From Minisyncoccota bacterium (GTDB taxonomy: Bacteria; Patescibacteriota; Minisyncoccia; UBA6257; UBA9933), in the NCBI GenBank assembly GCA_041650415.1, contig JBAZLC010000003.1, forward strand, positions 2,033 through 66,032: a DNA stretch of 64,000 bases, read 5' to 3'. The translations under genes and the position numbers were made by a program. This document shows, one piece after another, positions 1 through 64,000 of the stretch. Position 1 is the first letter of the stretch; each line of letters begins with the position of its first letter. The notes under the pieces were generated by a model. It was not told the origin of the DNA, did no database searches, and saw nothing but the letters and a program-made list of their open reading frames with translations.

Positions 1-692
1 CGGTTGAAGACGCCGCTCTTTCGGCGGGAGCCGCACGGGCTTATTTAGTTGAAGAACCGGTAGCGGCCGCTTTGGGCGCGCGATTGCCTGTGGACGAGCC
101 GACGGCCAGCATGATAGTCGATATGGGCGGAGGAACCACGGAAATAGCCGTTATTTCAATGGGCGGAGTGGTTATCTCGAGAAGTTTGAAAATAGCCGGA
201 GACAAATTAAACGATGATATAATTAAGTTTGTCCGCGACGAATTTAAATTGATGATAGGCGAGCCGACAGCTGAAGAGCTTAAAATGAAAATAGGTTCGG
301 CCATAGCGATGGATGAAAAATTGGAGCTCGCTATTCGTGGCAGAGACATGGCGACCGGATTGCCGAGAGAAGTGATAGTGAAAGGAGGCCATGTCAGAAT
401 GGCGATAAACCGTTCATTGCGTTCGGTGGTTGAGGCGATAAAAGAAACGATAGAAAAAGCGCCGCCGGAGCTTGTCGGAGATATTTTAAAAAACGGAGTT
501 TTTCTTTGCGGTGGCGGAAGTTTATTAAGAGGAATGAGTAATTTAATTCAAAGAGAGATTGCGGTGGAAGCTACAGTCGTGGATGACGCTTTAACATGCG
601 TCGTGCGCGGAGCGGGAATCATTACGGACAACATCGATAAACATTCCAAATTTCTCGCCGGGAGCTTGAAACCGATGGAAATTAATATATAA
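1..692 (+). CDS. mreB: Rod shape-determining protein MreB, 5'-truncated at the window edge (C-terminal ~230 aa present)
   Basis: The translation in the ORF-track frame (...VDMGGGTTEIAVISMGGVV...LCGGGSLLRGM...) matches the actin-like MreB family. The ORF is open to position 1, so the gene starts upstream of the window. Confidence 0.85.
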   Translation, partial: VEDAALSAGAARAYLVEEPVAAALGARLPVDEPTASMIVDMGGGTTEIAVISMGGVVISRSLKIAGDKLNDDIIKFVRDEFKLMIGEPTAEELKMKIGSAIAMDEKLELAIRGRDMATGLPREVIVKGGHVRMAINRSLRSVVEAIKETIEKAPPELVGDILKNGVFLCGGGSLLRGMSNLIQREIAVEATVVDDALTCVVRGAGIITDNIDKHSKFLAGSLKPMEINI

Positions 693-2760: not shown

Positions 2761-3111
2761 ATGAAACACTTAAGCTCCAACAGAAAATTCCATCGCAAAA
2801 AAGGGCAGCGAAAAGCCCTTTTTAAAAGCTTGGCTGACAATTTCATTTTGAAAGAAAAAATGGAAACTACTGAAGCTAAAGCCAAAGAAACTCGTACCAG
2901 AGTTGAAAAATTTATCACTCTTGGCAAGAAGCAAAATTTGGCGAGTTTTAGAATTTTGATGTCCAGATTGAATAAAAAAGCCGCCGAAAAAGTTTATTTT
3001 GATTTGGCTCCGCGCTATAAAGACAGAAAAGGCGGATTCACCAGAATAACGAAATCGGCCGTTCAAAGGAAAAAAGACGGAGCAAAAACGGCAATAATAG
3101 AGTTTGTTTAA
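2761..3111 (+). CDS. rplQ: 50S ribosomal protein L17
   Basis: 116 aa. HRKKGQRKALFKSLADN... matches bL17 and the gene follows rpoA. Confidence 0.85.
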   Translation: MKHLSSNRKFHRKKGQRKALFKSLADNFILKEKMETTEAKAKETRTRVEKFITLGKKQNLASFRILMSRLNKKAAEKVYFDLAPRYKDRKGGFTRITKSAVQRKKDGAKTAIIEFV

Positions 3112-3123
3112 ACCGGTGTGGGG

Positions 3124-3151
3124 TTGACAACAACACAATAAATAATATAAT
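3124..3151 (+). promoter_or_regulatory. Sigma70-like promoter upstream of tuf (TTGACA, 16-nt spacer, TATAAT)
   Basis: TTGACA at 3124-3129 and TATAAT at 3146-3151, read by eye, ~115 nt upstream of the tuf ATG. Confidence 0.5.
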
Positions 3152-3268
3152 TAAAAGCGTCGCGTAAAAAAACGTAAAAAATAAATAACGAAACGTGGAT
3201 CCTGAAATATGAAACAAACTGGATTAAACAATGTTTCAAATTTCAAGTTTTAAGTTTCAAAAAAAACA

Positions 3269-4468
3269 ATGGCTGAAAAAGCAAAATTTGATAGAAGCAA
3301 GCCGCACGTAAACGTCGGCACAATAGGACACGTCGACCACGGCAAGACAACTTTGACCGCGGCGATTATGCATATCCTTAAATTAAAAGGTCTTATTGAA
3401 AAAGAAGAGGGAGTCAATCAAATTGACAACGCGCCCGAAGAAAAGGCTCGTGGAATTACGATTGCCTTGCACCACTCGGAATATCAATCGGAAAAAAGGC
3501 ATTATGCCCACATCGATGCTCCGGGACACGCGGATTACATTAAGAACATGATAACCGGCGCGGCGCAGATGGATGGTGCGATTTTGGTCGTTGCCGCCAC
3601 CGATGGTCCGATGCCTCAAACAAGAGAACACATTCTTTTGGCTTACAACGTAGGCGTTCCGAAGATGGTTGTATTTTTGAACAAGTGCGATATGGTGGAT
3701 GATCCGGAACTTATCGACTTGGTTGAAAGCGAAATTCGCGAACTTTTGAAGAAATATAATTTCCCCGGAGACGAAACTCCGATAATCAGAGGTTCGGCGC
3801 TTAAAGCTCTTGAAGCGAAATCCGCCGATGATGAAGATGCCAAGCCGATTCTTGAACTTATCAAAGCTCTTGACGATTACATTCCGGAGCCGGTCAGGGG
3901 CACCGATAAACCGTTCTTGATGCCGGTTGAAGATATTTTCTCGATTGAAGGAAGAGGAACAGTCGTTACCGGAAAAGTTGAAAGAGGAATCGTGAAAGTA
4001 AACGAAGAAATCGAAGTTATCGGTATTAAACCGACGCAAAAGACGGTTGTTACCGGGATCGAAATGTTTAATAAACTTCTCGATGAAGGAAAAGCCGGAG
4101 ACAACGTTGGAATTTTGCTCCGCGGACTCAAGAAAGAGGACGTTGAGCGCGGCCAGGTTATTGCCAAGCCGGGAAGCGTTACTCCGCACTCTGAATTCAC
4201 GGCGGAAGTTTACGTTTTGAGCAAAGAGGAAGGAGGCAGACATACACCGTTCTTCAAAGGTTATAAACCGCAATTCTACATCAGAACAACCGATGTTACC
4301 GGAGAAGCCGTTTTGCCGGAAGGCGTTGAAATGGTTATGCCGGGCGACACCGTAAATTTGACGGTTAAGCTTATAGCGCCGGTTGCTTTGGAAGAAAAAC
4401 AAAGGTTCGCTATTCGCGAAGGCGGAAAGACGGTTGGCGCTGGTTCAGTAACAAAAATCTTAAAATAA
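3269..4468 (+). CDS. tuf: Elongation factor Tu
   Basis: 399 aa. [15 protein letters not shown]1 motif, with DAPGH and NKCD motifs; full length. Confidence 0.97.
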
Positions 4469-4485
4469 AAATATAAAATAGCACA

Positions 4486-4824
4486 TTGGACATGGCCAAA
4501 AAAAAGGAAGAATTAGAACAAGGCAAAATAAGGTTGCGGGTTAAATCGTACGACCACAAGCTGATAGACAATTCTTTAAAGCAGATTATAGACATCGCTT
4601 TGAGGAATGGCGCGGAAGTGGTTGGTCCGATTCCTTTGCCGACCGAATTTAAAAAGTATACGGTTAACCGTTCAACTTTCGTTCATAAAAATTCCCGCGA
4701 GCAATTCGAACTTCGTGTCCATAAGCGTTTAATAGATATTTTGACTCCGAGTCCGAAAATAATAGAAGCTTTGTCGAGTCTGACATTGCCGGCAGGAGTA
4801 GAAATCGAAATCAAAATGGCATAA
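4486..4824 (+). CDS. rpsJ: 30S ribosomal protein S10
   Basis: 112 aa. RIRLRVKSYDHKLIDNS...HKNSREQFELRVHKRLIDI matches uS10. Confidence 0.9.
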   Translation: MDMAKKKEELEQGKIRLRVKSYDHKLIDNSLKQIIDIALRNGAEVVGPIPLPTEFKKYTVNRSTFVHKNSREQFELRVHKRLIDILTPSPKIIEALSSLTLPAGVEIEIKMA

Positions 4825-4833
4825 AGCCAAAAA

Positions 4834-4866
4834 AAGATTCCCCGAACAGGGGAGTCTTTTTTATTT
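4834..4866 (+). terminator. Rho-independent terminator after rpsJ
   Basis: AAGATTCCCC-GAACA-GGGGAGTCTT hairpin followed by TTTTTTATTT, read by eye. Confidence 0.6.
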
Positions 4867-5281
4867 CGCATATTATTTCCTCTTCACCGCGCTCCGGCGT
4901 AAGTGAGTTCAGAAAATTTAATTTTCCCTTAACCCGCTTCGCCCCGTCCAGCGCGGGGCTCGCTAGTCCTCGCGACGGCGAGATTTTATTGGTCGCTTCG
5001 CTTCCGAATTATAATAAAACCACCAAGCTCGCCTGCTGCGGGGTTTCGGAGAAAACAAAATTTTCTTCTCAAAATACAGAATAAACCTTTTTCATAGCCA
5101 GCATTTTGGAGCGAGGTTATAAATTGATGAGCGAAAGGGAAAAAAGCGGGAAAATTGCGTTGTTTGAATCCCGAAGCGTAGCGAAGGTTGAGTTCGCTAT
5201 TTTCCGTCGGTTTTTTACTTTGAGCGAATACAATTTATCCGAGCGGAAAACGCTGGCGGGAAAAGATTTATTTGAATGGGG

Positions 5282-5310
5282 TTGACAAATGCCATTTCTT
5301 TGAGTATAAT
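5282..5310 (+). promoter_or_regulatory. Consensus sigma70 promoter (TTGACA, 17-nt spacer, TATAAT) inside the rpsJ-rplC spacer
   Basis: TTGACA at 5282-5287 and TATAAT at 5305-5310, with a TG two nt upstream of the -10 box; perfect hexamers with optimal spacing. Confidence 0.6.
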
Positions 5311-5316
5311 GTAGCC

Positions 5317-5410
5317 AGTGAGTGTGAATTTTCCTTGTTGCCAAGACGCAAGTCGCGGCAAAATTCAAGGAATATTTATCCAGTCCCCCCGCGAAAGCGG
5401 GGGGTTTTTG
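5317..5410 (+). ncRNA. Short structured transcript (~90 nt) or transcription attenuator: nested hairpins ending in a strong intrinsic terminator
   Basis: Downstream of the consensus promoter there are nested inverted repeats (GAATTTT/AAAATTC, TTCCTTG/CAAGGAA, TTGCC/GGCAA, with a GAC-GCAA-GUC GNRA-capped apex). These are followed by CCCCCCGC-GAAA-GCGGGGGG plus TTTTTG at 5385-5410. No ORF is present. Confidence 0.4.
5385..5410 (+). terminator. Intrinsic terminator/attenuator (CCCCCCGC GAAA GCGGGGGG TTTTT)
   Basis: A perfect 8-bp GC stem with a GAAA tetraloop and a T-run. Confidence 0.65.
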
Positions 5411-5445
5411 TTGTTGCGAAAATTAGGCAAATACAGCATAATTAT

Positions 5446-5590
5446 CTTGCGGCTGCAAGAGAGCACTCACTGCTTTTTATGCCTAAGTGGCCACGAGAGA
5501 GCACTCACTAAACAAAAAAACTGGAGGTCACCATCGTGGCCACTTAGGTAGTAAAAACTGGCGGCGTTCGCCGCCATTGCAGCCGCATAA
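5446..5590 (+). other. Highly structured non-coding segment (long leader of the rplC operon or a second ncRNA) with nested long-range inverted repeats and a 14-nt direct repeat
   Basis: GCGGCTGCAA (5450-5459) pairs with TTGCAGCCGC (5577-5586). CCTAAGTGGCCACG (5482-5495) pairs perfectly with CGTGGCCACTTAGG (5535-5548). There is a GGCGGCG-TT-CGCCGCC hairpin at 5561-5576. The direct repeat AGAGAGCACTCACT occurs at 5458-5471 and 5496-5509. Confidence 0.35.
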
Positions 5591-5732
5591 TGGAGACCTC
5601 GAAAAAGCCAATTGGCATTGACTTATTTTTTGCGATTTGCTATATTTAGCTTCAATATAATGTTGAGTTTTTCAGTTAAAAGTTTATAATCAGTTTTTAG
5701 GATTTAGCCCAAAATAATTAAAATTATTTGAG

Positions 5733-5762
5733 ACAGCCGGCTAAACCTGGCTGTTTTAAATT
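5733..5762 (+). promoter_or_regulatory. Hairpin plus U-run immediately upstream of the rplC start codon (possible attenuator/translational operator)
   Basis: ACAGCC-GGCTAAACCT-GGCTGT followed by TTTTAAATT, 9 nt before the rplC ATG at 5771. Confidence 0.35.
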
Positions 5763-5770
5763 GACTCGAG

Positions 5771-6370
5771 ATGGCATTCATTTTAGGAAAAAAATTAAAA
5801 ATGTCCCAAATTTGGAAAGATGAAAAAATCATTCCGGTGACGCTTGTTGAAGCCGGCCCGGTTACGGTTACCCAAATCAGAACAAAAGAAAAAGACGGTT
5901 ATGAAGCCGTTCAGGTTGGTTTCGGAAATAAGAAGGAAAAGAACGTTAAAAAGCCCCAAAGAGGCCAATTTGGGAAGCTTGGAAATTTTCAATACGTAAA
6001 AGAATTCAAAGCTGATGGCGATTTTAACGTCGGAGACGTTTTAAACGTCAGCCAATTCAAAGAAGGCGATAAAATAAAAGTCAGCGGTTTGAATAAAGGC
6101 AGAGGATTTCAAGGCGGAGTAAAAAGACACGGCTTTAGCGGCGGTCCGAAGACTCACGGTCAGAAAAATCGTTTACGCGCTCCGGGTTCCATCGGTTCGA
6201 CGGCTCCTCAAAGGGTTATGCCGGGCAGGAGAATGGCGGGCAGAATGGGCCAGGAAAGAATAACGGTTAAAAATTTGAAAGTCGCCGCGATAGACGAAAA
6301 AAAGAATATTTTAATGGTAAGAGGAGCCGTGCCCGGAATGAGAGGTACGTTGCTTGAAATAAAAATTTAA
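5771..6370 (+). CDS. rplC: 50S ribosomal protein L3
   Basis: MAFILGKKLKMSQIW... matches the canonical uL3 N-terminus; 199 aa. Confidence 0.93.
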   Translation: MAFILGKKLKMSQIWKDEKIIPVTLVEAGPVTVTQIRTKEKDGYEAVQVGFGNKKEKNVKKPQRGQFGKLGNFQYVKEFKADGDFNVGDVLNVSQFKEGDKIKVSGLNKGRGFQGGVKRHGFSGGPKTHGQKNRLRAPGSIGSTAPQRVMPGRRMAGRMGQERITVKNLKVAAIDEKKNILMVRGAVPGMRGTLLEIKI

Positions 6371-6374
6371 AAAT

Positions 6375-10101: not shown

Positions 10102-10301
10102 AAGACAAAGAATTTCAACAAGTAAAAATAAAGCCGATAGAAGCCCTTAATAAGGACTTAGTTGATTACCGCGAAAAATTGAGGAAATTCAAGTTTGATT
10201 TGAGCCAGGGGAAGGTGAAAGATATCAAAGAAATCAAGAAAACGAAAAAAGCGGTTGCCAGAATATTAACGGTAATGAATCAAAAAGATTTAAATAAATA
10301 A
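10098..10301 (+). CDS. rpmC: 50S ribosomal protein L29
   Basis: 67 aa, helical and lysine-rich, at the uL29 position. Confidence 0.85.
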
Positions 10302-10305
10302 AAAC

Positions 10306-10536
10306 ATGAAAAGGAATTTACAAGGAATAGTAGTTTCCGACAAAATGGAAAAAACAAGAGTAGTCGCCATCACGCGCTTGAAAAAGCATCCGCGCTACCT
10401 TAAGTACTACAAAGTTACCAAGAATTTTAAAGCCCATGACGAAAAGAATGAATATAAAACGGGTGATAAAGTTGTTATAGAAGAAACAAAACCGATGTCG
10501 AAGGATAAAAGGTGGGTAATAATTTCTAAGATTTAA
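10306..10536 (+). CDS. rpsQ: 30S ribosomal protein S17
   Basis: 76 aa with an OB-fold uS17 sequence ([16 protein letters not shown]). Confidence 0.9.
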
Positions 10537-10540
10537 ATTT

Positions 10541-11230: not shown

Positions 11231-11737
11231 ATGGAAAAGAAAACAAAGAAAAACGATTTAAAAAATCCAAAAATAGAAAAAGTTGTCATTAACGTCGGCG
11301 TTGGAAGAATTTCCCAGCAACAGGAATTTGAGACCAAAATTTTGCCGGAAATAATAAGCAGCTTGTCTTTGATTGCCGGACAAAAGCCGGTTATTTGCAA
11401 ATCCAACAAATCAATCGCCGGATTTAAATTAAGAGCGGGCCAAACAGTGGGCTTGAAAGTCACTTTAAGACGCCAAAAAATGCGAGATTTTGTGGCAAAA
11501 TTGGTAAATATCGCTTTACCGCGCGTCCGCGATTTCCAGGGAATCAGTCTGAAAAACATCGATAAAAACGGAGGTCTGACGATAGGCATGAAAGAGCATA
11601 TTGTTTTTCCGGAAATAGATTCTGAACTCTCAAAGTTTGACTTCGGTATGGAAATAAGTATTGTAAGTAGTGCGAAAAACAAGGAAGACGCGATAAATTT
11701 ATACAAGTCGATTGGAATTCCGTTTAAGAAATCATAA
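11231..11737 (+). CDS. rplE: 50S ribosomal protein L5
   Basis: 168 aa matching uL5. Confidence 0.92.
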
Positions 11738-11742
11738 ATAAC

Positions 11743-11928
11743 ATGGCAAAAGAATCAGTAATCGCGAGAGCGAAAAAAAAACCGAAATACTCAACCCGCA
11801 TCAGCAGGCGCTGCTTTAAGTGCGGCCGCAAAAGGGGATATTTGAGGGATTTTGAATTATGCAGAATTTGTTTCAGGGAATTGGCTTCACGCGGAGAAAT
11901 ACCCGGAATAACAAAGTCATCGTGGTAA
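11743..11928 (+). CDS. rpsN: 30S ribosomal protein S14, zinc-binding type Z
   Basis: 61 aa with [20 protein letters not shown]. Confidence 0.92.
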
Positions 11929-11935
11929 TATAAAT

Positions 11936-12322
11936 ATGTATATAGATTTATTGACTAAAATTAAAAATGCCCAAGCCGTCAAGAAAGAAATCGCCAAGTC
12001 GGCGTTTTCGAAAATGGACGAGCAAGTATTGGAAATTCTTTTGGCAAAGGGTTATATTTCGGGCTTTGAAAAAAAGGGTAAAGGCGCCAAGCGCGTTTTT
12101 GATATTCAATTGAAATACGATAAAGACACTAATGACGGCGCCATCGCCGGAATAAAATTTATCAGCAAGCCTTCGCGTAAGATGTATATCGGCTATAAAG
12201 AAATAAGGCCGATAAAATCCGGCTATGGATTGATGGTACTTTCTACGCCCGATGGAGTTTTGGCCGGCGGAGAGGCGAAAAAGAAGAAAATTGGAGGAGA
12301 ATTATTATTCGAGATTTGGTAA
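11936..12322 (+). CDS. rpsH: 30S ribosomal protein S8
   Basis: 128 aa matching uS8. Confidence 0.9.
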   Translation: MYIDLLTKIKNAQAVKKEIAKSAFSKMDEQVLEILLAKGYISGFEKKGKGAKRVFDIQLKYDKDTNDGAIAGIKFISKPSRKMYIGYKEIRPIKSGYGLMVLSTPDGVLAGGEAKKKKIGGELLFEIW

Positions 12323-48515: not shown

Positions 48516-48565
48516 ACCAAGTTTATTATATCAAAAAATCGTTGTTTTGGAGAGGGAAGCTATAT

Positions 48566-48594
48566 TGACAAAATCAAACAAATCTGTTATAATA
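48566..48594 (+). promoter_or_regulatory. Consensus sigma70 promoter (TTGACA, 17-nt spacer, TATAAT)
   Basis: TTGACA at 48566-48571 and TATAAT at 48589-48594, read by eye. It is divergent from the 48126..48515 gene. Confidence 0.6.
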
Positions 48595-48600
48595 TAGGCG

Positions 48601-48895
48601 GAAGGGATGAGAAAAAATTCTTTCCTGAACTGGCAAAATGCCATTTCAAAAGTTCTTTACAATAAGAAACTGGGTAGCGGAGCGTACTAGACTAAATCGA
48701 GAATTCATATTTTTACATTTTTCCTTTATTTTTCTCATATAAAGAATTCTCGATTCCTCTCCATATCTTCAGTCCTTGCCGGAACCATACAATTTTTCTT
48801 TTCCGGGAATTGGACCAACTGAAGATGGAGAGGATAGCTTTCGCCATCCCATCCCTTATAAAGGAGACTCTCGCGAGCCTCCTTTCTTTTTTTAT
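48601..48895 (+). ncRNA. Candidate ~300-nt structured ncRNA of unknown class (consensus promoter to intrinsic terminator, no convincing ORF)
   Basis: 5' AAGGGATG pairs with 3' CATCCCTT. CGAGAATTC (~48700) pairs with GAATTCTCG (~48746). CTCTCCATATCTTCAGT pairs with ACTGAAGATGGAGAG as a long helix. The terminator is AAAGGAG-ACTCTCGCGAGC-CTCCTTT plus a T-run at 48860-48895. The only ORF is 27 codons (48608-48691). Confidence 0.45.
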
Positions 48896-48936
48896 ATTTA
48901 TTTTGTCGTGGATAATGATGGTTTGGGGATTACTTA

Positions 48937-53440: not shown

Positions 53441-53512
53441 CTGCGGGGCTAGGAATCGAACCTAGAACTTCAGATCCAGAGTCTGACGTGTTGCCAATTG
53501 CACCACCCCGCA
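53441..53512 (-). tRNA. tRNA-Gln (anticodon CTG)
   Basis: A manual cloverleaf from the reverse complement: acceptor TGCGGGG/CCCCGCA with a U1:A72 pair, U8, a short D-stem (GTG/CAC) and anticodon stem TCAGA/TCTGA. The anticodon loop is CTCTGGA with anticodon CUG. The T-stem is CTAGG/CCTAG with loop TTCGATT. The discriminator is G, and no CCA is encoded. Confidence 0.8.
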
Positions 53513-60951: not shown

Positions 60952-61210
60952 TTGCTTATGTTGATAACTTTAGTTTGCTTGTTCTTGCGATTTTGATATA
61001 ATGATATCAGATCGTTAAAACAACCAGAGGAGATGGAGGGACAATATAGTCCCAACTACCGCATGACAAGTGCGAGCTTCGTTCAAAAGACAAAATTGTC
61101 CCCTGTGATGTCTCAAAATGACGGGAACGTGAACAAAGCTTACGCGCGCATTCGCGGAATGGCTAATCGCCGAATGGTATAGAGCCTTCCATCTTCTCTT
61201 CTCGATACAA

Positions 61211-61240
61211 GCCGTGAACTCGTTTCACGGCTTTTTTCTT
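61211..61240 (+). terminator. Intrinsic terminator (GCCGTGAA-CTCGT-TTCACGGC plus TTTTTT)
   Basis: Read by eye; it ends a short transcript from an upstream promoter around 60977-61005. Confidence 0.55.
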
Positions 61241-61247
61241 TACTTGA

Positions 61248-61303
61248 CCCCACACATAAGAAATTATGTGTGGGGTTGACAAATTTAGATGACGTGCTAT
61301 AAT
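61248..61303 (+). promoter_or_regulatory. Perfect 12-bp inverted repeat (CCCCACACATAA-GAAA-TTATGTGTGGGG) abutting a consensus sigma70 promoter (TTGACA 61276-61281, TATAAT 61298-61303)
   Basis: Operator-like palindrome whose 3' arm ends one nt before the -35 hexamer. Confidence 0.55.
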
Positions 61304-61309
61304 ACGATT

Positions 61310-61668
61310 AAGTTCATTGAGATAGTTTTGAAGGAGAAGGCTGGGTCGGTACTCGTCCTCAGCGGCGGCATAGTCTAGGGTTGACTGCGTTGTTTCATCC
61401 CGCACCTATGCGCAGTGCAGCCGGAGGCAACGCTTGGGGCCAACACAAACGCCGGCGAATGGGCCCCGGTTTGCGAATTGGGTGCATCGCATGAAGCGTT
61501 ACGGATGCGGTCGTCGCCTCCCTGGATCTCTCGCGATTCTGCGGTGGTTGAATTTCCCGCAAATCATCCTCGAGAGCAGGAGCCGAACTGCAAATCCGGG
61601 CCGCGGCACGTCCCAGTCTTCTCCCCCTATATAGCCGGAAACTTTCAGTATAGTTCCCGGCTTTTTTA
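61310..61668 (+). ncRNA. Candidate GC-rich (~56%) structured RNA (~360 nt) or long riboswitch-like leader ending in an intrinsic terminator, upstream of the amidohydrolase gene
   Basis: Driven by the consensus promoter. Many local helices (TGGGGCC/GGCCCCG, CGCAT/ATGCG, CGCCGGCG palindrome). Terminator AGCCGGAAAC-TTTCAGTATA-GTTCCCGGCT plus TTTTTT at 61633-61668. The ORFs on the track have non-protein-like composition. Confidence 0.4.
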
Positions 61669-63157: not shown

Positions 63158-64000
63158 AGCATTTGGCGGGAGAACTCCCGATTACATTTTTATCGTTTGC
63201 GCTTTACTGCTGACCGTTTTTGGATTGGTCATGCTTTCTTCGGCGTCTTCGGATTTGGGAAAGATAAAATTTGACGATACTTATTATTATTTAAAACACC
63301 AAATTATTTACGGATTGGGATTGGGCGCCATCGGATTTTTATTCGCTTTTTTCATAGATTACCGTTTTTGGCAAAGAATAGCAGCGCCCCTGCTTATCTT
63401 AAATTTATTTTTACTTGTTTTAGTTTTCACGCCTTTGGGTTTTTCGCACGCCGGCGCGAGCCGCTGGCTGGATTTGGGATTTATGTCCATTCAGCCCGCC
63501 GAACTGCTTAAATTTTCTTTTATAGTTTATCTTGCCGCCTGGCTGGCTCCGCGTGCAAAAGGCGCGAATAAAGACGCGCGCCAAAAAGATTTTTGGGCGG
63601 GATATTTTCCGTTTTTAGTCATTTGCGGGCTGGTGGCGGTTTTAGTCGTTATTCAACGTTCGACTTCCGCCGTGGCGATTATTATGGCGGCCGGACTTTT
63701 GGTTTATTTTGCCAGCGGCGCCAGAATTTCTTACATTCTTAGCACTATTCTTATTGGGCTTGTGGCATTTGGCCTGCTTATTTCTTTTTCACCGTACCGT
63801 TTGGACCGCGTGGAAACTTATTTTAAAATGATTACTCATTCGGAATCGATAGATTATGAATCCAGCGCTTTCCAGGTTAATCAATCATTAATATCTATCG
63901 GATCGGGAGGTTTAACCGGCGTGGGCTTCGGTCAATCAACGGCCAAATTTAAACGCCTGCCGGAACCGATAAGCGATTCTATTTTCGCGGTTATCGCGGA
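63147..64000 (+). CDS. SEDS-family peptidoglycan glycosyltransferase FtsW/RodA, 3'-truncated at the window edge
   Basis: ATG at 63147 overlapping the amidohydrolase stop. Translation MKFKAFGGRTPDYIFIVCALLLTVFGLVMLSSAS...SIQPAELLKFSFIVYLAAW...LPEPISDSIFAVIAE matches FtsW/RodA. No stop before 64000. Confidence 0.75.
   Translation, partial: MKFKAFGGRTPDYIFIVCALLLTVFGLVMLSSASSDLGKIKFDDTYYYLKHQIIYGLGLGAIGFLFAFFIDYRFWQRIAAPLLILNLFLLVLVFTPLGFSHAGASRWLDLGFMSIQPAELLKFSFIVYLAAWLAPRAKGANKDARQKDFWAGYFPFLVICGLVAVLVVIQRSTSAVAIIMAAGLLVYFASGARISYILSTILIGLVAFGLLISFSPYRLDRVETYFKMITHSESIDYESSAFQVNQSLISIGSGGLTGVGFGQSTAKFKRLPEPISDSIFAVIA

Follow-up and report, generated by a model that had tools for sequence, protein, structure and literature searches.

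The Escherichia coli S10 leader, which lies upstream of rpsJ and combines L4-mediated transcription attenuation with translational control, is confined to Gammaproteobacteria, and leader pseudoknots of ribosomal-protein genes are known from S15 (rpsO) and S4 (the alpha operon). In T-box leaders, a tRNA serves as a trans RNA ligand that stabilises the antiterminator, and the countertranscripts of pT181 and pIP501 act by antisense-RNA-mediated transcription attenuation. The raiA motif, a single RNA of ~200 nucleotides (nt) with pseudoknots, is found upstream of raiA/hpf in Firmicutes and Actinobacteria. Here, we describe the spacer between the ribosomal-protein genes rpsJ (S10) and rplC (L3) in a 64,000-nt stretch of a Minisyncoccota bacterium (GenBank assembly GCA_041650415.1, contig JBAZLC010000003.1, positions 2,033 to 66,032, forward strand). 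This whole stretch is hereafter called the window, and positions are counted from its first letter. The spacer is probably a mosaic of an inserted segment, a gene for a small RNA (A), a second RNA (B) and real promoter(s) with a leader for rplC.

The genomes of Patescibacteria, or the candidate phyla radiation (CPR), are tiny; few of their regulators are known, and hardly any of their non-coding RNAs have been characterised. A first-pass annotation, made from the sequence alone, had viewed the spacer as a structured, GC-richer insertion splitting rpsJ from rplC. It offered two options for the promoter, terminator and repeats found there: (a) an independent small RNA, or (b) a promoter plus leader that autoregulates the rplC-rplD... 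operon by attenuation, in analogy to the E. coli S10 leader.

Organisation of the rpsJ-rplC spacer

The spacer (4825-5770) separates the gene order rpsD-rpoA-rplQ-tuf-rpsJ from rplC-rplD-rplW-rplB... by 946 bp, close to the ~950 bp first estimated, and is the longest stretch free of open reading frames (ORFs) within the window. Both flanking genes were confirmed by Pfam:

4492-4824: rpsJ, S10
5771-6370: rplC, L3, with its ATG at 5771

In an L3-based retrieval, the window grouped with Candidatus Wolfebacteria/Paceibacterota metagenome-assembled genomes. The spacer was compared by BLAST with 82 related loci (L numbers below), the closest of which were then read directly, and a metagenome scan with an exact pattern from the most conserved block provided 56 additional loci. 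From 5282 onward, the spacer is conserved in three blocks with variable spacing between them. Covariation across relatives supports a hairpin in A, a stem in B and a pairing in the rplC leader. The permutation tests used below leave phylogenetic dependence in place, and compensatory types do recur across different architectures of A.

The elements read in the first-pass annotation were recovered, some with small shifts. The rpsJ terminator lies at 4830-4862 (earlier 4834-4866), the TTGACA-17-TATAAT promoter at 5282-5310 matches the consensus at 12/12 positions, and CCCCCCGC-GAAA-GCGGGGGG plus T5 occupies 5385-5409. The nested inverted repeats span 5482-5496/5534-5548 and 5448-5458/5577-5587, the direct repeat (5451-5471/5489-5509) has a 13-nt perfect core, GAGAGCACTCACT, and the final hairpin with its T-run (5734-5757) ends 13 nt, rather than 9 nt, before the rplC ATG. 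In comparison with shuffled sequences, the structured character held for three parts (5317-5412, z = -6.45; 5447-5604, z = -7.9; 5692-5773, z = -2.7), and the ~410-bp first part folded weakly better than shuffles (z = -1.96). GC content was barely higher, at 0.42-0.48 compared with about 0.37-0.47 in the flanks.

The spacer was at least 79 bp long, and often more than 1 kb, in each of the ~55 related genomes in which both genes were found; in ~25 further related genomes, rpsJ was absent within 4 kb of rplC. Since the spacer never falls below this length, the split between rpsJ and rplC is a clade trait and not an event of this genome, and the notion of an insertion applies to 4867-5281 only.

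Small RNA A

The first conserved block contains a unit that is kept in more than 60 loci together with its promoter, its 5' end, a covarying hairpin and a terminator:

5282-5310, plus strand: promoter of A, TTGACA-17-TATAAT, 12 of 12 consensus matches
5317-5410, plus strand: small RNA A, ~90 nt, with conserved promoter, covarying hairpin and terminator
5317-5324, plus strand: 5' seed of A, AGUGAGUG
5328-5347/5352-5375, plus strand: central hairpin of A, with a GCAA tetraloop
5378-5384, plus strand: 3' pairing segment of A, AUCCAGU
5385-5404, with U-run 5405-5409, plus strand: terminator of A, CCCCCCGC-GAAA-GCGGGGGG

In most loci read, 6 nt separate the end of the -10 box from AGUGAGUG, and in L035 the distance is 9 nt; this spacing ahead of an invariant sequence suggests that A starts with AGUGAGUG. 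Among 22 sequences with the window type of central hairpin, 9 of the 17 predicted pairs showed compensatory changes and 97.9% of cells were paired. The covariation score of this hairpin was 0.523, compared with 0.224 in shuffles (0/500) and at most 0.13 in slid registers. Two other hairpin architectures occur in other lineages with the ends of the RNA unchanged. In terms of sequence signals, a promoter, a GC stem and a U-run bound a short non-coding unit in more than 50 distinct copies of A, and the GNRA/UNCG apical loops together with the U-tailed terminators fix its strand. An independent small RNA at 5317-5410, option (a) above, is thus supported, with transcription predicted from these signals in more than 60 loci, in two of which A lies on the opposite strand from B. 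Because the promoter at 5282-5310 and the terminator at 5385-5410 delimit A, this terminator is not an attenuator of rplC.

In many relatives, the -35 TTGACA of A is formed by the last codons of rpsJ, an embedding that indicates long residence of A at this site. In seven loci (L002, L003, L083, L084, L088, L120 and L135), these are the S10 codons GTT GAC ATT and no rpsJ terminator is present, so that the terminator of A would also end the tuf-rpsJ mRNA. In genomes of this kind, A is possibly an RNA derived from the 3' untranslated region (UTR).

RNA B

The second block is a hairpin with a large loop, which in the window is present as one copy nested inside another:

5414-5442, plus strand: promoter of B, TTGCGA-17-CATAAT with a preceding G, 9 of 12 consensus matches
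5449-5587, plus strand: RNA B, a nested double copy recognised by inverted repeats, folding and stem covariation
5448-5458/5577-5587, plus strand: outer stem of B, an inverted repeat
5463-5471: GCACUCACU of the outer copy, which also has a degenerate 3' half, AAAAACUGG, plus a hairpin at 5559-5576
5482-5496/5534-5548, plus strand: stem of the inner, complete copy, the perfect core of the repeat 5474-5496/5534-5556
5497-5533: inner loop, GAGA-GCACUCACU (5501-5509)-AAACAAAAAA-ACUGGAGG (5520-5527)-UCACCA (5528-5533)
about 5590-5601, plus strand: AUGGAGACCUC, present in L001 and L083 besides the window and in no other locus, complementary to GAGGUCACCAU of the B loop

In relatives, the promoter of B carries TGGCATAAT or TGnTAnnnT, the general form being TTGNNN-16/17-(TG)GCATAAT or TANNNT. 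A match to TTGNNN-16..18-TANNNT was found upstream of B in 34/51 loci, and in loci with a simple hairpin the -10 box ends 6-8 nt before the stem. Because the MAFFT alignment of B mis-registers the 5' strand, stem covariation was evaluated by a fixed-rule script with permutation controls. The stem has at least 9 contiguous pairs in 46/46 distinct copies, built from 29 different strand sequences, compared with 4.06 contiguous pairs for permuted partners (0/5000 reach the observed value). The stem has 28 G·U pairs against 5 A·C, and this excess of G·U leads us to read B as an RNA from the plus strand. The loop (~37 nt) is almost invariant, nnGAGCACUCACUAA-N5..16-GGAGGUCACCA, with 24 invariant alignment columns, a conservation that looks inflated because related loci were gathered by an exact-match pattern.

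It is scarcely credible that the repeats are features of the DNA rather than RNAs, such as the relic of a mobile element, a recombination site or a cruciform. The nesting of B in B does resemble a self-targeted insertion, the segment inserted nearby is bounded by inverted repeats, and relatives show an enrichment of DnaA boxes close to the pair. Against this stand the G·U excess, the GNRA/UNCG apical loops and U-tailed terminators on one strand only, a covariation between A and B that acts in trans (below), the long residence indicated by the -35 box of A in rpsJ codons of many lineages, and the lack of a recombinase nearby.

Nested copies of B are also present in L098, L119 and L124. Among the window (5448-5587) and these three loci, such nesting within a B loop evolved at least twice, in separate lineages; in the three loci, the inserted copy is bordered by an additional helix, GUGACCUUU.../...AAAGGUCAC. 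Within the window, the only match to a partner for GGAGGUCACCA was the local segment at 5591-5601, and the 5590-5600 segment may form a pseudoknot that competes with A. The sole GGAGG of the spacer lies inside the B loop. A role as Shine-Dalgarno sequence, whether of a small ORF or of the downstream gene, was considered and rejected, since no conserved start codon follows, the spacing in secA/murB loci is at least 27 nt, and rpsJ, rplC and rplD of the window have no such sequence. Reading UCACCA as an external-guide-like RCCA for RNase P was also set aside as weak, the CCA being 2 nt out of register with the helix Y described next.

Pairing and co-occurrence of A and B

A is predicted to pair with the B loop through two short helices, the second of which is backed by compensatory changes. 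In helix X, the 5' AGUGAGUG of A is complementary to CACUCACU of the loop in a perfect match of 8-9 nt, and the two B sites are the only places in the 64-kb window where the loop-side 8-mer, CACTCACT, is found. Both sides of helix X are invariant, partly because the search pattern fixed them, and this helix is therefore proposed from complementarity. In helix Y, 5-8 nt before the A terminator are complementary to the loop segment (N)CUGGAGG, with the matched variants ACUGG/CCAGU (loop/A) in most loci and AUUGG/CCAAU, CUUGG/CCAAG, CCUGG/CCAGG and GUUGGAGG/CCUCCAAC in others. One large lineage has gained a matched 10-bp helix between GCUAUUUGUA of A and UACAAAUAGC of B. Across 37 distinct pairs, the cognate A/B duplex had a mean energy of -10.06 kcal/mol, compared with -7.74 kcal/mol for permuted partners (sd 0.35; 0/2000).

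Profile searches of all collected sequence found B in 70 sources and A in 66/70 of them, on the same strand in 64 and on opposite strands in 2 (L119 and L127); no locus had A without B. Two of the four B loci without A have B at a contig edge. The opposite orientation in L119 and L127 indicates that A and B are separate transcription units and that their pairing acts in trans.

These observations bear on option (b), in which the promoter at 5282-5310 would start one long rplC leader, with 5385-5410 as an attenuator for L4 or another ribosomal protein and the downstream repeats as part of the same leader. The A terminator does lie between a strong promoter and rplC, read-through would yield a cis A-B-rplC transcript, and the genes of the window have no other obvious regulation. 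We nevertheless regard this explanation as very improbable. B has its own conserved promoter with a start site at the base of its stem, rplC has its own conserved promoter after B, A and B are on opposite strands in two loci, no alternative pairing overlaps the terminator of A, and the pair precedes (murB)-hpf-secA in most lineages. As framed, option (b) fails in that its promoter and terminator delimit A and its repeats (5448-5587) belong to a second RNA with a promoter of its own.

In the predicted complex, the B stem, helix X, the A hairpin and helix Y would close a four-way junction in which GAG and UCACCA are unpaired. The invariant unpaired nucleotides at this predicted junction would also fit a reading of A:B as a two-piece structured RNA (a ribonucleoprotein scaffold, a bimolecular aptamer or a ribozyme), not primarily regulatory, with GAG, UCACCA and GA as its active or binding site. 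The strict co-occurrence of the pair and the lack of a match to any known housekeeping RNA fit this idea too. It is quite improbable in light of the central hairpin of A, which differs greatly among lineages in its three architectures, and of the position of B at the extreme 5' end of mRNAs, where in one lineage a terminator overlaps it.

Genomic context and proposed mechanism

Every locus outside the Wolfebacteria-like lineage has the order A-B-(murB)-hpf-secA, and the only other context found is the rpsJ-rplC gap. In loci where secA or murB is proximal, the ORF starts 21-41 nt past the B loop, which places B at the 5' end of that secA or murB mRNA. In five distinct hpf loci (L087, L090, L097, L102 and L106), the 3' strand of B is common to a terminator of 11-18 pairs plus U-run. 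In this sub-lineage, the strand (CUACCACUCAyC...) finds its terminator partner in a second copy of the B 5' strand further downstream, and the U-run lies ~30 nt before the hpf AUG with no promoter between. Judged from sequence, the B stem and this terminator are a classical antiterminator/terminator pair, and the shared strand also matches the seed of A. A terminator competing with B was not found in the window or in any of the 20 rplC-context loci (0/20), and in the lineage of the window a conserved promoter lies between B and rplC.

On this basis, we propose that a sigma-70 promoter would start A at ~5317 and the terminator at 5385-5409 would end it, and that the B promoter would start B at ~5449 as a 5'-terminal hairpin with a conserved large loop. 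B would be the 5' leader of the following transcript, (murB)-hpf-secA in most lineages and rplC here. A, a dedicated RNA acting in trans, would be the 'ligand' of this leader and would alter the fate of that transcript by docking on the B loop. As the B stem and the terminator are mutually exclusive in one hpf sub-lineage, A would switch read-through there. With no terminator after B in the window, the effect may instead be on stability or processing, or B may be a two-site decoy for A. The nested duplicate would offer two docking sites, and B of the window could be either a long-UTR isoform or such a decoy. That A and B are transcribed, which way the regulation would run and what signal A would carry are all inferred.

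Tentatively, A/B may be an undescribed two-RNA switch of Paceibacteria (CPR), with a T-box-like logic that dispenses with tRNA. It would control how far ribosome-related operons are read through or how stable they are, originally hpf-secA and, in Wolfebacteria-like lineages, rplC/S10. A different proposal is that A and B are free-standing, with B a decoy or sponge of one or two sites that titrates A, targets of A elsewhere and neighbouring genes irrelevant. The nested two-site B of the window, L098, L119 and L124 would suit a sponge, as would the rplC lineage, where what lies between B and rplC is a promoter and not a terminator switch. We consider a sponge unlikely given that no other seed match occurs in the 64 kb (~7% of a genome), that the 21-41 nt between loop and ORF in secA/murB lineages leave no room for a promoter, that B stem and terminator compete in the hpf sub-lineage, and that only two genomic contexts were found.

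Several points weigh against a regulatory A/B pair as proposed. With no terminator after B and a strong promoter before rplC, the step from B to a regulation of rplC is the least secure one in the lineage of the window, and A/B was present at rplC in only ~13/80 related genomes sampled around that gene. Helix X (AGUGAGUG/CACUCACU) has no covariation support, and in the lineage with the 10-bp helix it seems sterically difficult for A to pair in full inside a B loop that is closed. GAG and UCACCA are invariant in the loop yet unexplained by pairing with A, which suggests a further partner, for example a protein or another RNA. The promoters and terminators are consensus matches throughout. Conservation, covariation, co-occurrence and separate promoters and terminators of A and B are observed directly in the collected loci, and the combination of insert, A/B pair and rplC leader is, in our judgement, somewhat favoured as the best explanation of the spacer as a whole. 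The unpaired junction nucleotides GAG and UCACCA might serve to sense a further factor.

In relatives, perfect DnaA boxes (TTATCCACA) in the same orientation as A/B cluster beside the pair (L009/L137, L086/L131, L091, L093, L096/L121, L109, L116, L122 and L138). Their position is either 50-90 nt upstream of the A start or 60-95 nt beyond B. A/B loci contain 20 such boxes, 12 of them within -700..+400 of the B loop, where they are ~12-fold denser than elsewhere; the spacer of the window has none. In some lineages, these boxes might link transcription of A to replication status. In L086, L091 and L096, a tiny lysine-rich ORF (MAKKKAKKKAKKGKKGKGRR-like) with its own terminator lies between B and hpf.

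If confirmed, the A/B pair would be a compact RNA-only control device placed before ribosome-hibernation, secretion and large ribosomal-protein operons, and one of few natural examples in which an attenuator has a dedicated small RNA as its effector. Because the organisms are uncultured, it matters that A/B and the rplC leader can be tested directly in vitro.

The rplC promoters and leader

The third block belongs to rplC itself:

5618-5646, plus strand: rplC promoter P1, TTGACT-17-TATATT with TG, a consensus match
5663-5690, plus strand: rplC promoter P2, TTGAGT-16-TATAAT, a consensus match
5699-5757, plus strand: rplC leader, recognised by duplex-energy permutation and folding z-score
5699-5710: leader segment 'a', AGGAUUUAGCCC, complementary to GGCUAAACCU at 5739-5748
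5734-5753, with UUUU 5754-5757, plus strand: leader terminator hairpin, CAGCCGG-CUAAAC-CUGGCUG, 13 nt before the ATG

P1 has the form TTGACA-N14-TTTGyTAynAT directly after B in the rplC-lineage loci read (L003, L009, L088, L122 and L130). The complement of segment 'a' at 5739-5748 is the apex of the terminator hairpin, comprising its top two pairs plus the loop. In 48 distinct leaders, the cognate pairing had an energy of -11.5 kcal/mol, compared with -9.6 kcal/mol for permuted partners (sd 0.31; 0/5000) and -6.0 kcal/mol for shuffled upstream segments. Divergent lineages keep this architecture with other sequences (GAUUUAGU/ACUAAAUC, CAAGGAUAGCC/GGCUnnGCCUUG and GCUAGCC/GGCUAG), and the architecture is conserved class-wide. 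In the shortest spacers (L058, L041 and L043), the leader element is everything between rpsJ and rplC, which makes an attenuator downstream of S10 plausible.

The rplC leader probably serves as an attenuator that responds to a ribosomal protein or some other factor, and would act on transcripts from upstream promoters, with its two pairings either coexisting as a pseudoknot or mutually exclusive. The idea of attenuation in option (b) survives in the 5734-5757 element of this class-wide leader, a good candidate for such an attenuator, and not at 5385-5410. The leader is a conserved, covarying structured element in the 5' UTR of its operon, the generic mark of a ribosomal-protein leader, and makes a candidate for a ribosomal-protein autoregulatory element outside Gammaproteobacteria, to which the L4/S10 leader is otherwise confined.

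Two other arrangements were seen before rplC in relatives. Arrays of ACGAAU/AUUCGU-type repeats, which may be a protein-binding array or a different type of leader, span the last 60-100 nt before the rplC ATG, between leader terminator and start, in L002, L010, L019/L089, L026, L046, L051, L055, L076 and L135; the window has none. In L020, L031, L035, L092 and L128, a different conserved element (…GGUGCUCAAU…AAAUUUUCUACGC…GAAAAUUU…AUUGGC-AUG), ~75 nt before the rplC ATG, replaces the usual leader.

The inserted segment

Upstream of A, the spacer consists of the rpsJ terminator and a segment with no counterpart in the nearest relative:

4830-4862, plus strand: intrinsic terminator of tuf-rpsJ, AAAAAAGAUUCCCC-GAACA-GGGGAGUCUUUUUU, an inverted repeat of 14 nt, 93%
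4867-5281, no strand: lineage-specific insert, missing from L001

The closest relative, L001 (94% L3 identity), lacks 4867-5281, and there the rpsJ terminator abuts the promoter of A; the insert is therefore lineage-specific. The terminator is kept in L001 and missing in relatives that have the -35 box of A inside the 3' codons of rpsJ. The first part of the insert (4904-5077) is GC-rich and bounded by 25-nt imperfect inverted repeats (4911-4935/5042-5066, 76%). Related copies of this element follow rpsJ in L126 and L128, and an inverted one in L130; no second copy was found in the 64-kb window, whereas a MITE-like repeat would be expected to combine terminal inverted repeats with several dispersed copies. 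The remainder (5100-5281) contains a hairpin plus T-run (5140-5220) and a 52-amino-acid ORF (5127-5285), which matched no Pfam family. We regard the whole of 4867-5281 as a recent lineage-specific insertion of unknown nature.

Other features of the window

The gene order at 2761-4824 is unusual, with tuf-rpsJ directly after rplQ, the end of the alpha operon. The distance from tuf to rpsJ is 23 nt, and a second perfect promoter, TTGACA-16-TATAAT, lies upstream of tuf at 3124-3151. No Shine-Dalgarno-like sequence precedes the starts of rpsJ, rplC and rplD (4470-4491, 5757-5770 and 6360-6374). Further stretches of 420-840 bp without an ORF of at least 90 amino acids (10102-10540, 11707-12251, 48516-48936, 60952-61414 and 63158-64000) may hold small genes or more non-coding RNAs.

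Comparison with known RNA families and systems

Rfam 15 at gathering threshold identified only a tRNA (53441-53512) in the whole window and only tRNAs in 14 related loci. A scan of 4700-5900, which includes the interval 4825-5770 that the first-pass annotation had wanted scanned, returned no family match, and at E <= 10 gave only terminator-driven chance matches far below threshold. Nothing relevant was found in the hpf-context locus L087 at E <= 1. ARAGORN detected no tRNA or transfer-messenger RNA (tmRNA) in 4500-6000, and no permuted form of tmRNA. Sequence comparison of A, B and the leader with E. coli 16S, 23S and 5S rRNA gave no significant local similarity, none of the collected loci contains an rRNA, and literature searches on the motif sequences and on CPR non-coding RNAs returned nothing relevant. 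Hammerhead- and hairpin-ribozyme-like cores were considered and rejected, as neither topology nor consensus fits. A split tmRNA, signal recognition particle RNA, RNase P and 6S RNA were likewise considered by their conserved motifs and rejected (no T-loop, domain-IV motif or P4 motif). The A/B pair matches no described RNA family.

The suggested analogy to the E. coli S10 leader was not borne out as a resemblance in sequence or structure. The two share a terminator-containing leader before rplC-rplD..., and 5699-5757 of the window holds the equivalent regulatory position. The leader of the window differs in lying downstream of rpsJ, in the pairing of its upstream strand with the terminator apex and in having no Rfam match. 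Like the S15 rpsO and S4 alpha-operon leaders, it has a conserved fold, alternative or pseudoknotted, in the 5' UTR that precedes ribosomal-protein genes, but the fold and the organisms differ. With the raiA motif, A/B shares the position of a conserved non-coding RNA immediately upstream of a ribosome-hibernation gene; unlike it, A/B consists of two RNAs, and the related loci have no Rfam match.

The likeness to T-box leaders lies in the hpf sub-lineage, where a leader helix is exclusive with a terminator and a separate RNA would dock through two short helices. In contrast to a T-box, the ligand would be a dedicated ~90-nt small RNA encoded next door and not a tRNA, and A/B has no Stem I, specifier loop, T-box sequence or Rfam T-box match. 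The RnaG, pT181 and pIP501 RNAs are cis-antisense, overlapping and fully complementary to their targets, whereas A is non-overlapping, usually on the same strand and upstream, and would pair by means of two short stretches that are arranged in a permuted order compared with the target. A/B resembles antisense attenuation by RnaG of icsA in Shigella (PMC5394118) in that a small RNA would contact the loop of a nascent-leader hairpin and decide between terminator and antiterminator. It also resembles the OxyS-fhlA kissing complex (PMC2946933), where the contact of small RNA and leader likewise consists of two short helices. There, OxyS makes two loop-loop contacts that block translation, whereas both contacts of A would fall in one large loop of B and the pairing ends of A flank its own hairpin.

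A/B has none of the defining sequence or structure features of the T-box, RnaG-icsA, OxyS-fhlA or raiA systems. Judging from the features above, it is best placed with riboregulation by a small RNA and a leader, and the rplC element would be a new leader of the ribosomal-protein type.

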